Assembly (NCBI GenBank): GCA_964016885.1
Contig: OZ024754.1
Coordinates: 36,456,001 to 36,520,000, forward strand
DNA from: Eledone cirrhosa
Lineage: Eukaryota
DNA length: 64,000 nt
Direction of reading: 5' to 3'
Notes under the pieces: model-generated
Databases searched by the model: none
What the model was told of the DNA's origin: nothing
The model's input: only the letters and a program-made list of their open reading frames with translations
Shown here: positions 574 to 63,177 of the stretch, piece after piece
How positions within the stretch are numbered: position 1 is the stretch's first letter
Layout: the number at the start of each line of letters is the position of its first letter
Made by a program: the position numbers and the translations under genes

Positions 574-766
574 AACGAAAGAAGTGTGGTAAGGAACCAG
601 ATGGACCATAAAGCACCAGAGTATTCAATACTCAGGGTAGTAGAGTGGGTAATAGGAAAATGTTTAACCCCGACGGCAGAGCTCAAGCCCTTTCGACTGC
701 TATTTAGTCCAGAAATAGCCATCGAAACGGCTTGAGCTCTGCCGTCGAGGTTAAACATTTTCCTAT
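574..766. mobile_element. Family A fold-back module (HHR/Penelope-like terminal-repeat derivative) in (TA)n
   Basis: Antisense long arm AACGAAAGAAGTGTGGTAAGGAACCAG..., then a palindrome at 652-766 whose right arm reads GAAACGGC-TTGAGCTCT-GCCGTC-GAGG (HHR stem III plus GUC). Ten related copies in the window. Confidence 0.8.
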
Positions 767-2134
767 ATATATATGTATATATATATATATATATATATAT
801 ACATACATATATATATATATATATATATATATATATATATATATATATATATATAGATATATATATATATATATATATATATATATATATATATATATAG
901 TAATAATAATAAAATTGAAGACTAAAATCCAAAGAGGGCTCGATAAGGAAATAATAATATATATATATATATATATATATATATATATATATATATATAT
1001 ATATATATATATATATATATATATATATATATATATATACATATATATAAATATATATATATTATGGAATATATTATGGAATACTGTTGGCTCCTTGCTA
1101 CAATACTTTCTATACCTTTCATATATATCTATATATATATATATATATATTTATATATATATATATATATATATATATATTTATATATATATATATATAT
1201 ATACACATCTATTTTCCGTTAGTCAAAGAAGCGAATGGTGAACGTCGAGACCAGAGCGGTATCTAAGGTATGGCAAGGATAGCACGTGACATGGGTGCCA
1301 CTTGAAAGGGGACGCTACCTGGACTAGAAGCACTTTCTATTAAAGTCAGATAAGCTATCGTCAGAGAGTGAAAAAATAAACTTCTTCAGACGTATGATCT
1401 GTCTTTGATTATCATGGGTGAGAAACACTATGGTGGCCGGACCTTTAACCCTTTAGCATTTACATTACTCTATATAAATATACGACGGTACGATCTAACG
1501 GCTATACCAAATCGATATATATATATATATATATAAACGTTTGTATATGTATAATAAAGCCAAAACAATGCAGGTATGGACATAGAATAAAGAATGCAAA
1601 TGCAAAAGATATTGTTGACAATTAGTCTTTTACCTTAGATTTATTTAAATGTCCTTAATTTTCGAGATAATATCTCTTCTTCGGAGGGAAGTAAAGCGGT
1701 TAAACCAGTGTTCTAAATATATATAAACTTCACTCATATATGAAAAAAACAATCTGAGGCCCCCCTTTTTTGAAGGCAAATATAATAAGGACTTTGTAAC
1801 GCGAACTGGCGCAAAATGTATTATACTTATTCGCATGACAGTCACCAACCAACCAAATTACTTCTCTAAAAACCTAGCATTTCGAGCCACTTTTTTTCAT
1901 ATAAAAGTAACATTCAAACACCAACCAGATGTGAGAAAAATCACAAACACTCCATCTCAATCCTACTTTTGAAAAGCAGAAGAACTGCGAAACCGATAAA
2001 GAAACTAAATAAATATATTTTAAAAAAAAAAGACTCCAGTTGCATTTTCGATTTCATCTTTTTTCCTTATACTTTCACTCGTGTAGGACACCTCGGTTTT
2101 TTTTTCATTTTGTAAAAAAACCTCACTTTCTAAT

Positions 2135-2351
2135 ATATATATACAATATATTAATAAATGGAAACTATATTTATAAAACCTTATTTATTTTATTATACAT
2201 ATTTCAAGGGCAACCAAGGTGTGCTTTCATCAGATAAAATACAGATTTGTTTTATAAATAAATATTGACATACCCGGAAAAAAGTGGTTTATATCAGTTA
2301 TAAAAAATGTTTAAGCTTGTTGAATCCCAACAAATTAAATATAACTTCTGC
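2135..2351 (-). mobile_element. Family B Penelope-like terminal fragment carrying a minimal HHR
   Basis: Flanked by TA repeats. Shares TTAATAAATGGAAACTATATTTATAAAACC with 7107-7165 and 56521-56586, and CAACAAATTAAATAT with the 56880-56975 segment. Confidence 0.6.
2187..2240 (-). ncRNA. Minimal type I hammerhead ribozyme motif
   Basis: Minus strand reads AUUUUAU-CUGAUGA-AAG...CUU-GAAAU-AUGU-AUA-AUAAAAU: perfect 7-bp stem I, intact core, 2-bp stem III with tetraloop, AUA cleavage triplet. Confidence 0.7.
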
Positions 2352-2649
2352 ATATATATATATATATATATATATATATATATATATATATATATATATA
2401 TATATATATATATAAAGGAAAAGAATGACTTCACTTGTAGTTCTAAACAATTTAACTTAATTTTATAATGTTGTGATTTTACAAAACCAAATTGTAAAAT
2501 CACAATAACAACAATTGTATCTTCTCCATGTTCTAAGCGACTCATCAAATCACATGATGTGATCGCCCCAGCCCCATCCCGCCTCCTTTCTAGGTTACCC
2601 TTTTAACACCCCTTTTAAATTCTTTTCTTTTCATTCGTTCGTCGAATCC

Positions 2650-59310: not shown

Positions 59311-61720
59311 CCATTCTGAATAGGGAGCTATTCCCTTTCGATACAAATTCAAACGTTGTAGCTTTGTTGTTTCATTGTTAGAAACCAGGTCTTTTTTTTA
59401 TAGGAAATATTTAAGCATGCACAAACACATACAAATATATATATATATATATATATATATATATATATATATATATATATATATATATATATATATATTC
59501 AAACATACACACTCACATGCAAACATATATACATACATATATACATACATAGACTACACGGGTATGATGTAATGAGATGAACTGATGTTGAATGTGTTAC
59601 CATCTCCCTTCCTTTTCTTACAGACACACACACACGTATATATATATATATATATATATATATATATATATATGTACGCATGTAAATATATATATATATA
59701 TATATATATATATATATATATATATATGTGTGTGTGTGTGTATGTACGCATGTTTATATATATATATATATATATATATATATATATATGTATGTACGCA
59801 TGTATATATATATATATATATATATATATATATATATATATATACATATATATATATATATATGTGTGTGTGTATATATGTATACATATATATATATATA
59901 TATGGATATATATATATATATACAGTATATATATATATATATATATATACGCACTTAAACAAGGGATTATATATGTGTATGTGTGTAGGCATACATACAT
60001 ACATACATACATACATACATACATACATACATACATACATACATACATACATACACACATACATACTTATATATATATATATATACACACACACATATAC
60101 GTCTTTCTTTCACCACAGGTTACCTGGGCTGATATTGTTTGTGATATTTAAATGTGTATGTGTATATGTATATGTGTCCCACTGTATGTATGTATGTATG
60201 TATGTATGTATGTATGTATGTATGTATGTATGTGTTTGTGTGTGTGTATGTGGACGATGTGTCTATTGAGGGAATGATGTATATAGAGGGTTGGTATGGT
60301 GTGGAGGGGTGGGGGCGATAGCCTGCTGGGTAGGGGTGAGGCTGGGGGGGGGGGGCTATAGTGACGCGTGGACAATATCAGTAATAATAATGGAAGGGAG
60401 GGAGGGAGGGAGGGAAGGAAGGAAGGAGTCGTGTGAACCGAGTTGGAGACGGCGGCGGTGGTGGTGGTGGTGGCGTTGGAGCGTGGCTTGTACATATCTA
60501 TGAGTAAGCCTGGTTGTCCAGGGTACGTTAGAGGTGAGTGTGGTGGGATTGGGAGTGGGGGGTAGGAGCAGGTGAAGTGGAGGAGGAAGAGGGGTGAAGG
60601 GCGTAGGTGTGGAGGAAGGGGGTAGAGAGCGAGAGAGGATTGGAGGGGAGAAGGGGGTAGGTGTGGAGGAAGGGCGTAGATGTGGAGACGGGGATAGAGA
60701 GAGAGAGAGAGAGAGAGAGAGAGTGAGAGAGAGAGAGGGTTGGAGTGGAGAAGGAGGTAGACGTGAAGAGGGTAGATGTGGAGACGGGGATAGAGAGAGA
60801 GAGAGAGAGAGAGTGAGAGAGAGAGTGAGAGAGAAGGTTGGAGTAGAGAAAGGGGTGTGACTATGTATGTGTGTATGTGTGTGTATACGTTTGTGTAAGT
60901 GTGTATGGTTGTATGTGTGACTATGTATGTGTGTGTGAGTATATATGCGTGTGTGTAAATGTGTATGGCTGTGTGTGTGACTATGTATGTGTGTATGTAA
61001 GTATATCCCTTTGTGTAAGTGTGTATAGCTGTATTTGTGTGTGTGTGTGTGTGTGTGTGTGTGTGTGTGTGTGTGTGTGCACGAATGTGTGTGGATATGT
61101 ATGTGTGTATGTAAGTATATGCGTTTGTGTGTGTATAGCTGTATGTGTGTGTGTGTGTGTGTGTGTGCACGAATGTGTGTGGATATGTATGCAAGTATGT
61201 GTGTGGGAGTGTGTATGTGAGTGTTTGTATGTGAATATGTGTACGTGTGAGTATGTGTGTGAGGGGTGTGTGTGAGTATGTGTTTGTATATATATGGATG
61301 TATATGCGTCGTGTGTGTATATGTGTTTGAAAGTTTGAATGTGTGTGAATGTGTGTGAGTGTGTGTGTGTGTGTGTGAAAGTTTGTGTGTGTGTGTGTGT
61401 GTGTAAGTAGGGAGGGGTTGTAGTGTCATGTCCGCGTGAAAGCGGAAGAGTGAAATATAAACACTGGTGGTGATGGTGGTAGTGGTGGTGGTGATGGTGG
61501 TGTTGGTACTGGTGGTGGTGGTGGTGGTGATGGTGGTAGTGGTGGTGGTGGTGATGGTGGTGGTGTTGGTATTGGTGGTGGCGGTAGTGGTAGTTATGGT
61601 TATGACGGTAGTGGTGGTGGTGGTGATAGTCATGATGAGGGTGGGGTGAGCTAATAGTGCTGGTGGTGTTAATGGTAGTCGTTGTTATGGCGGTAGTGAT
61701 GATGGTGGTAGTTATGATGA

Positions 61721-61815
61721 AGGCGGAGGCTCCCTCATCAGACGCCGACGTTCCGGTCTTGCGGAGGAGCTCGGCAGTACGGGGTCCAAGTACGTCTGAG
61801 GTCTCGACGGCGACC
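61721..61815 (-). mobile_element. CRE-like RLE-domain fragment
   Basis: VAVETSDVLGPRTAELLRKTG aligns with LAVETSGVPGPRITSLFTTIG at 45640-45715. Confidence 0.55.
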
Positions 61816-63008
61816 GATATCCTCAATAGGAAGGGACAAATATCTCGGGCCAAACAAGAAGATCCTCGATAACTGACTTCTCTGTCCACCAAGGGCAAGG
61901 GCCCTTATCCAATTACGGAATCCTGATCCACGGGTGCATGAGTCAAAGCATTTTCAGTTCGAGACTATATTCGATTTAATCAACCCACAGAGATGATTTG
62001 GAAAGAACAAAGAGAAAATAATGTGGAGTCGGAACAAAGAAAGTACTAGAAACTCTGCAAAAACTGAATCTAGTGACCCAGTTTTCGGTGACTCGTCACC
62101 GCCTTTCCAAACCACAAGCACCACCACCACCACCACCACCACTACCACCACAACCACAACAACCACCACCGCCACCACAACCACAACCAAAACAACCACC
62201 ACCACCACCACCACCACAACCACAACCACAACAACCACCACCGCCACCACAACCACAACAACCGCCACCACCACCACCACCACCACCACCACAACCACAA
62301 CAACCACCACCGCCACCACAACCACAACAACCGCCACCACCACCACCACCACTACCACCACAACTACAACAACCACCACCGCCACCACAACCACAACAAC
62401 CGCCACCACCACCACCACCACCACCACCACAACCACAACAACCACCACCGCCACCACAACCACAACAACCACCACCACCACCACCACCACCACCACAACC
62501 ACAACAACCACCACCGCCACCACAACGACAACAACCGCCACCACCACCACCACCACAACAACCACCACCGCCACCACAACGACAACAACCGCCACCGCCA
62601 CCACCACCACCACCACAACAACCACCACCGCCACCACAACGACAACAACCGCCACCACCACCACCACCACCACCACCACAACCACAACAACCACCACCGC
62701 CACCACAACCACAACAACCGCCACCACCACCGCCAGCACCACCACTACTACCACCACCCCATCAACACCATCAGCAGGACGTCGAAGGGGAACGAAGAAA
62801 TTGTAAAGTGTGGTGGCTTGTTAAGTCCAATTTATATCAAACCACCCGAAACCACCTGCTGGTTCTGATACAAAAATGCTTATGCTAAATCATATATATA
62901 TATATATATACGTTAGCATATATATATATATATATACACACACATACATATATCATATATTTATACACAGACTAACACACACACACACACATATATATAT
63001 ATATATAT

Positions 63009-63177
63009 AACGGAGGAAATGTGGTAAGGAACCAGGTGGACCATAACGCACCAAAGTACTCAATACTTAGGGTAGTAGAGTGGGTAATAGCAACGAGTAG
63101 GACCCCGACGGCTGAGCTCAAGCCGTTTCGACGGTTAATTCGGCTTGAGCTCAGCCGTCGGGGTCCTACTCGTTCCT
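63009..63177. mobile_element. Family A fold-back module (centre deleted)
   Basis: Same subfamily variants as 51768-51968 (ACGAGTAGGACCC). Confidence 0.85.

Follow-up and report, generated by a model that had tools for sequence, protein, structure and literature searches.

A fold-back repeat family of probable Penelope-like origin, built from part of a likely hammerhead ribozyme, in Eledone cirrhosa

A stretch of 64,000 nucleotides from Eledone cirrhosa (GenBank assembly GCA_964016885.1, contig OZ024754.1, positions 36,456,001 to 36,520,000 of the forward strand), called the window below and numbered from its first letter, contains eight short palindromic modules set in TA repeats, which together with two unfolded relatives are termed here Family A. 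The question raised by this locus is how the same short sequence came to lie, in one copy after another, head to head with a shorter inverted version of itself. Each module can be read as a head-to-head pair of 5'-truncated ends of a hammerhead-bearing element, produced during insertion by a Penelope-like element (PLE) enzyme, a reading to which we give a probability of about 60%. It is founded on the observed anatomy of the modules, on a copy resembling the parent in which the hammerhead layout is complete, on 5' ends that cluster and on arms that match by subfamily. The window has a G+C content of 38%, is rich in microsatellites and short repeats, and includes one 200-nt gap; no real gene was recognised among its 216 long open frames, which are mostly translations of simple repeats, and its character is that of intergenic or intronic DNA of an animal.

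The eight modules reported in an initial annotation were all recovered and measure 172–204 bp (n = 8). From the centre outward, each arm begins with a stem piece, followed by GAAAC, GGC-9 nt-GCC, GTC, GGGG, a linker that varies, and CCTAT. In all eight, as had been described, this last motif closes the short arm, which passes directly into ATA/AT repeats, and the long arm goes about 80 nt beyond CCTAT (78–83 nt counting the final TAT), so that a tail is present on one side only, again in 8/8. TA runs border every module, with a perfect run of 2–104 nt per side, but on one side at least this run is short in several of them: it is down to 2 nt beyond CCTAT at 63179 and to 4 nt at 22675, and at 574 both sides have 8 nt. 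The predicted RNA hairpins of the modules range from −84 to −129 kcal/mol. An assembly fold-back artefact was rejected as a general explanation because the arms differ by 0–18%.

Within this common plan the copies differ in detail. Module 574 (571–766) has the long arm with its tail in ribozyme sense on the − strand, then the centre, then a short arm with its sense on the + strand, ending with CCTAT at 766. Module 55705 (55703–55900) is reversed relative to the others, the long arm having its sense on the + strand, and its arms are the most diverged (18%). The arms of module 24573 (24572–24761) are identical around a centre of CTG, and this copy looks the youngest of the eight. Module 49819 (49818–50013) has a self-complementary centre, CTGTACAG. 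The longest centre (39 nt) is that of module 51768 (51767–51970), which carries GTCCAG on both arms; module 63009 (63008–63179) belongs to the same subfamily with a different junction, and neither the stem II piece nor GAAA is present in its short arm. Module 19589 (19588–19784) represents the CTAGCTGTC / GGCCGGAGCTC subfamily, and the remaining module, 22676, occupies 22675–22872. A BLAST search with a word of 7 letters showed that the earlier count of eight members was incomplete, since copies at 6494–6690 and 7200–7340 had been missed; fold-backs are thus 8/10 of the Family A copies in the window. All ten are dispersed, at a density of one copy per 6–7 kb, and no tandem copy occurs.

The two arms of a copy vary together beyond chance, as the initial annotation had proposed. 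The mean own-arm distance was 0.087, compared with 0.193 over all 40,320 pairings of short and long arms (p = 5.0e-5), and the own long arm was the sole nearest at 4/8 loci, tied nearest at 3/8 and second at 1/8. At least five linker haplotypes, one of them with a 2-nt indel, are each present on both arms. A single ancestral palindrome copied unchanged is therefore excluded, in agreement with the earlier claim. A tree of the 16 window arms joins the arms of one locus as sisters at 574 and 24573, strong support being found for 0 of its 12 branches; the expectation that both arms of a locus should be sisters is thus borne out at two loci only.

For a view beyond the window, reads from four of eight runs, five of which contain the query stretch or part of it and three of which are raw-read runs under the same species label, were aligned at 80% likeness to the single-arm copy at 7200–7340 (window 7196–7345, the reference starting 4 nt before the element). 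Run X1 is possibly the window's own sample, X6 consists of reduced-representation reads of another sample and X4 comes from a second organism, B; matching records numbered 23,229, 22,543 and 296 (the last mostly below 95% likeness), and run X5 gave none against this reference at that threshold. The three arm-shared variants that had been quoted as private are indeed there. They are mostly subfamily markers and not strictly private: in X6, 1070 loose read ends have the GGCCGGAGCTC variant as their consensus (agreement 0.86), and 1938 have the CGTTCCTAT variant. Arm matching hence tracks mainly subfamilies rather than single copies. Locus-private alleles lie on one arm in 23 of 28 cases, the five found on both arms being all in the linkers of 574 and 24573, and 8/9 CpG-type changes are likewise on one arm only. 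This argues that the arms were alike at birth and have diverged since by neutral ageing, and it disfavours ongoing arm-to-arm conversion, which the initial annotation had kept as an option.

The second clue lies in the places where the arms break off. Apart from the short arm of 63009, the arms have their 5' ends in stem II of the hammerhead, on its 3' strand, at a distance of about 9–22 nt upstream from GAAAC; the turn just 5' of GAAAC that had been described is accordingly found on both arms in 7/8 modules and fails at 63009. All eight junctions are different, even within subfamilies (51768 vs 63009; 574 vs 49819), and the earlier statement that every centre differs was correct for all eight. 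The copy at 7200–7340 (+ strand) has the tail and no inverted partner, and starts 19 nt upstream of GAAAC against a TA-rich flank. Truncation in stem II is thus seen in a single-arm copy as well, and the palindrome is not needed for the break-off (n = 1). At the other end, three listed rows of X6, with 3875 reads, pass from the element into (TA)n at CCTAT (agreement 0.78–0.89; depth just upstream about 12,900), so the end point of the short arm is stereotyped beyond the window too. Fifteen joints within reads were listed, with 22 more beyond these; opposite-strand joints account for 13/15 of those listed, in runs X1 and X6, and in X6 they comprise 324 reads, many from a single start.

These results bear on the idea that the palindrome arose a single time or only a few times in each subfamily and was then retroposed whole, its tips being later deleted or inverted and its arms sometimes homogenised. 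Covariation that is resolved only to the subfamily, with ties at 3/8 loci and no strong branch, agrees with such a history, as does the uniform module length (172–204 bp), and palindrome centres are known to undergo deletion and inversion. Yet the linker haplotypes present on both arms would call for repeated remaking or for conversion, mutations on one arm dominate (23/28), the single-arm copy ends at the same place, and no two of the eight junctions are alike; we hold this history to be unlikely.

A similar but slightly lower standing is given to the principal model of the initial annotation, in which a tail-primed complementary DNA (cDNA) stalls in stem II, snaps back, copies itself as far as CCTAT and joins the target by TAT microhomology. 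It would account directly for the matching of the arms; it agrees with module 24573, where the arms are identical around CTG, with 49819, whose centre is self-complementary, and with 63009, and the complementary stem II strands of the parent would offer a natural self-primer. Against it stand the three modules in which the short arm holds parent bases without a complement in the long arm, and which make a simple fold-back of one cDNA unlikely. With the sense of the parent set by the two unfolded copies, the short arm at 574 has the parent-sense AGTCCAG and reaches 18 nt into the parent as opposed to about 11, at 22676 it has the parent-sense GTCCAG that is not in the long arm, and at 19589 its match to the old copy upstream of GAAAC is 16 nt long compared with only 11. 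Moreover, the near-invariant end (8/8 modules; 3875 reads) fits a defined start of reverse transcription (RT) better than a three-base microhomology, and CCTAT, regarded earlier as the point where microhomology resolved the structure, would more plausibly be a second RT start of the kind published for the PLE tail. Two RNA-templated cDNAs that were afterwards joined fit all the orientations and are favoured, the extra bases of the short arms needing a second RNA copy unless the long arm lost them later.

Evidence on the parent comes from the old unfolded member at 6494–6690 (+ strand), which displays a type I hammerhead layout followed by the tail and then (TA)n. Its 5' part comprises the stem I 5' strand (6502–6505), CTGATGA (6506–6512), the stem II 5' strand (6513–6518) and an insert of about 40 nt; its 3' part comprises the stem II 3' strand (6559–6564), GAGAC in place of GAAAC (6565), stem III with a 9-nt loop, a GTT cleavage triplet (6585) and GGGG. 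CTGATGA lies 54 nt upstream of the GAAA position, which reads GAGA here and GAAAC in the young arms. About 145 nt can be aligned with these arms, with local scores of 127–134.5 compared with a shuffle maximum of 51–56.5, and 14/15 hand-drawn pairs are valid (stem I 4/4, stem II 5/6, stem III 5/5). Both flanking stems fit at only one of the 23 CTGANGA sites of the window. That the CTGATGA at 6506 might be a CpG-decayed inverted arm was considered and rejected, as 761, 395 and 90 of 1000 shuffles score as well and true arms reach 78–84. Judged from these sequence features, a hammerhead ancestry of Family A, as first proposed, is likely. None of the 23 CTGANGA sites falls inside a fold-back module, which agrees with the earlier remark that the fold-backs lack CUGANGA; they keep the 3' hammerhead half alone and would be inactive, because the CTGANGA half is absent.

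This copy also bears on the proposal that Family A derives from a DNA transposon targeting TA, of the miniature inverted-repeat transposable element (MITE) or Helentron-like kind, with hammerhead-like motifs arising by chance. MITEs often target TA and carry inverted repeats, and no hammerhead stands among the Rfam matches listed for the region. The stable terminal inverted repeats at both ends that mark a MITE are not seen in Family A, where the inverted repeat does not reach the end of the element on both sides and one arm has an unpaired tail of about 80 nt; 5'-truncated and unfolded copies exist, the arms co-vary by subfamily, and a hammerhead core with three stems stands in register in the old copy. 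Such an origin is accordingly rated as very improbable.

By analogy with published elements we infer that Family A is a PLE insertion unit cut to a minimum. An inverted 5'-truncated neighbouring copy is found in 8/10 copies, a one-sided tail in 8/8 modules and a (TA)n microsatellite target in 8/8. The available parts of Craig et al. (2021, PMC8557442) attribute to PLE insertions an adjacent inverted 5'-truncated copy, a tail of 30–40 nt at one end and a preference for (TA)n, give (TA)n targets for the Naiad and Hydra families, cephalopod ones included, mention that Penelope-13_HM has an inverted copy attached to it, and treat the way in which the inverted structures form as a matter still to be settled. 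Family A is like the endonuclease-bearing PLEs treated there (Penelope/Poseidon, Neptune, Nematis, Hydra, Naiad) in the inverted truncated copy, the tail at one end and (TA)n, and differs from them in that both copies are cut to less than 150 nt at nearly the same place and no coding region is linked to them. A pseudo-long terminal repeat (a partial tandem) was not found in the window, and stubs so short need not have one. The Family A motifs gave no match in the paper texts searched, nor in the accessible supplement of PMC8557442, where line breaks could hide matches. The octopus elements Naiad_Obim, Naiad_Ovul and Naiad_Omin of that supplement were rejected by eye as the parent, since their 3' ends differ. 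The 3' end of Naiad_Ovul, as it appears there, has by eye a long stem ending in GTC-GAAAC after a CUGANGA-like variant, a layout that resembles the Family A parent without similarity in sequence.

Two other reports are relevant, as far as their available portions extend. For Poseidon of Anolis carolinensis, AT-rich DNA was cut and extended in vitro on both strands, the tail being the stretch between two RT starts and uncleaved hammerhead RNA being the template (Frangieh et al. 2024, PMC11167929). The same two-strand cutting, two RT starts and uncleaved template are proposed here for Family A; the Poseidon starts are without target homology, whereas at both ends of Family A about 3 nt (TAT) are identical with (TA)n, and inverted products are not addressed in the portions of PMC11167929 at hand. 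Paired motifs on opposite strands, 100–700 bp apart, were ascribed to truncated PLEs by Cervera and de la Pena (2014, PMC4209133), and the minimal metazoan PLE hammerheads in the accessible text of that paper share with the putative hammerhead of Family A the type I layout, a short stem I and a palindromic loop III (GAGCTC).

The parent could also have been a non-coding hammerhead passenger, similar to a retrozyme or a short interspersed element (SINE), that was moved by a PLE or another retroelement and joined in the same manner, with no coding PLE ending in this sequence. No coding match was obtained in the 900 bp upstream of the old copy, and animal retrozymes carry type I hammerheads for which a derivation from PLE ends has been proposed (bioRxiv 10.64898/2026.07.22.740005; PMC7229834, both in the parts available). 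In retrozymes the repeats stand in tandem and every unit has a complete hammerhead; the window contains no such array of the Family A unit, 10/10 copies being dispersed, and the one-sided tail and the inversion are PLE marks. We regard a passenger origin as improbable.

The favoured reading, insertion by a PLE enzyme, can be spelled out as follows. The PLE protein would nick both strands of a TA-rich target, after which one target 3' end would prime RT at the end of the tail and the other at the internal CCTAT, just before the tail hairpin described below, where 3 nt (TAT) are identical with the target. Both cDNAs would be extended on uncleaved RNA past the GUC site and GAAAC, and about 9–22 nt beyond GAAAC they would come to a halt in the long stem II, on its 3' strand; their ends would then be joined through 0–4 nt of microhomology or through stem II complementarity. 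The product would have the tail on one arm, would lack CUGAUGA and would not be expected to cleave itself, and once inserted it would age neutrally, each arm collecting its own mutations. In twin priming by LINE-1, likewise, two target strands prime cDNA on the element RNA and the products are joined, giving an inversion; there the inverted piece is not a duplicate, whereas in Family A the same 45–60 nt are copied twice. The modules are thus likely to be the usual dead-on-arrival leftovers of a Penelope-type element, unusual mainly in their uniform break-off. It is tempting to go further and see in stem II both a fixed stop and a joining handle, the two cDNAs, with starts set by a bulged hairpin conserved across families, annealing to each other so that almost every insertion would be a perfect hairpin of about 190 bp; this extension is put forward tentatively, as rather doubtful in its full form.

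Several observations weigh against insertion by a PLE enzyme or against its hammerhead premise. The evidence for the hammerhead core depends on one decayed copy, whose lowest-energy fold is something other than a hammerhead and does not surpass shuffled sequences (z 0.02). No hammerhead is among the 150 of 295 Rfam matches listed for the whole window, and an Rfam local scan of 6440–6690 gives none; the same kind of scan of 56100–56300 also misses the textbook-looking motif at 56177. In three frames over the 900 bp upstream of the old copy there were no relevant Pfam matches (RT or GIY-YIG), and exact Family A patterns had no match in viral, metagenome and prokaryote collections. The tail, at about 80 nt, exceeds the 30–40 nt published for PLEs (PMC8557442, in part), and the minimal metazoan PLE motifs of PMC4209133, as far as these are given in the portions available, have shorter stems II and III; with a 5-bp stem III, a 9-nt loop and a stem II domain of about 54 nt, the parent is nearer to the variants with a 'large helix III' or to the Naiad 'HHR_half_core' of these two sources. 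Target-site duplications are unreadable in (TA)n, and later deletions at the palindrome centre could mimic the varied junctions. Finally, 2206 reads of X6 in two listed rows continue from the 5' end into mixed sequence (agreement 0.43–0.45), compared with the 324 reads of the listed opposite-strand joints; they may be single-arm copies, parents, or fold-backs with an unplaced second arm, and the genome-wide share of fold-backs may be smaller than the 8/10 of the window, or hairpins may be under-read.

The old copy has a counterpart outside the window, for run X4 of organism B contains a diverged form of Family A with loose ends resembling the tail of 6494–6690. This suggests that the subfamily of the old copy arose before the two organisms diverged.

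The window holds a second family whose sequence is similar to that of Family A on the 3' side of GAAAC; in a post hoc comparison, 0 and 6 of 1000 base shuffles did as well. Its unfolded copy at 56165–56294 (+ strand) has an intact minimal PLE-type hammerhead motif, with CTGATGA at 56177, GAAAC, a palindromic AGCT and GTC; a fold-back copy at 22449–22587 turns at GGACT|GAAAC (22479), lacks CTGATGA and has a tail on one side only, and a stub at 55955–56005 (− strand) starts at GAAAC. The members of this family end in (CA)n or purine repeats and not in (TA)n. Just 3' of the end point of the short arm, the single-arm copy of Family A carries a tail hairpin (7270–7293, + strand) of an ACTC/GAGT stem, a 2-nt bulge and a TACT/AGTA stem. 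A GTATTGAGTAC-type motif was found in the tails of all ten Family A copies except 55705, and also in the second family. The predicted hairpin is weak (−2 to −5.6 kcal/mol) and is the computed lowest-energy fold in 7/9 of the family copies found; that it could act as the RT start signal is a guess.

Further hammerhead-like motifs, each with CTGANGA, a short stem and GAAAC or a variant, occur on the − strand at 54921, 50193, 25160 and 20260, several of them followed by a short tail and (TA)n, and stubs related to 54806–54881 lie at 20004–20082 and 6841–6885. Another element of about 100 nt, with CTGANGA and a (TA)n end, is present at 6961–7064 and 49651–49754, both sites being less than 200 bp from a Family A copy. 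Two palindromes are unrelated to Family A in sequence: an AT-rich, near-perfect one after (TA)n at 52166–52350, and a hairpin of about 150 nt in (GATA)n at 36504–36660, with a partial copy at 22261–22322.

The rest of the window is dominated by other repeats. A SINE-like repeat of about 200 bp is abundant (4990–5200, also 18519–18898, 39587–39989 and 57360–58130), with up to 20 overlapping matches per site and some tandem or inverted pairs; it may be akin to the octopus SINEs, and together with the microsatellite load it gives the window a likeness to an octopus genome; its motifs had no match in the paper texts searched. Long tandem arrays (minisatellites) occupy 27526–32206 (4.7 kb), 26515–27159, 44358–45421 and 42200–43300, and decayed retrotransposon-like frames are seen at 45505–46290, 33150–34017 and 55406–55714. 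Of 17 translated stretches submitted to Pfam none rose above the curated cut-off; a weak RVT_1 match (E 0.16) at 45508–46287 is unrelated to Family A.

The overall architecture of these insertions is already described for PLEs, and Repbase or Dfam libraries may already contain Family A. Family A stands out by its tight stop in stem II, its tail of about 80 nt and the tail hairpin that it has in common with a second family. In a short and abundant family with an internal marker of the RNA-copied strand, the mechanism of joining becomes testable by junction counts, and the eight junctions described here favour two RNA-templated cDNAs over a snap-back. Repeat annotators could misfile such stubs as MITEs. 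If stem II does serve as the place where the cDNAs stop and are joined, Family A would represent a very large natural record of the formation of PLE inverted insertions, and it would be a dense source of double-stranded RNA stems of about 55 bp for editing or silencing.

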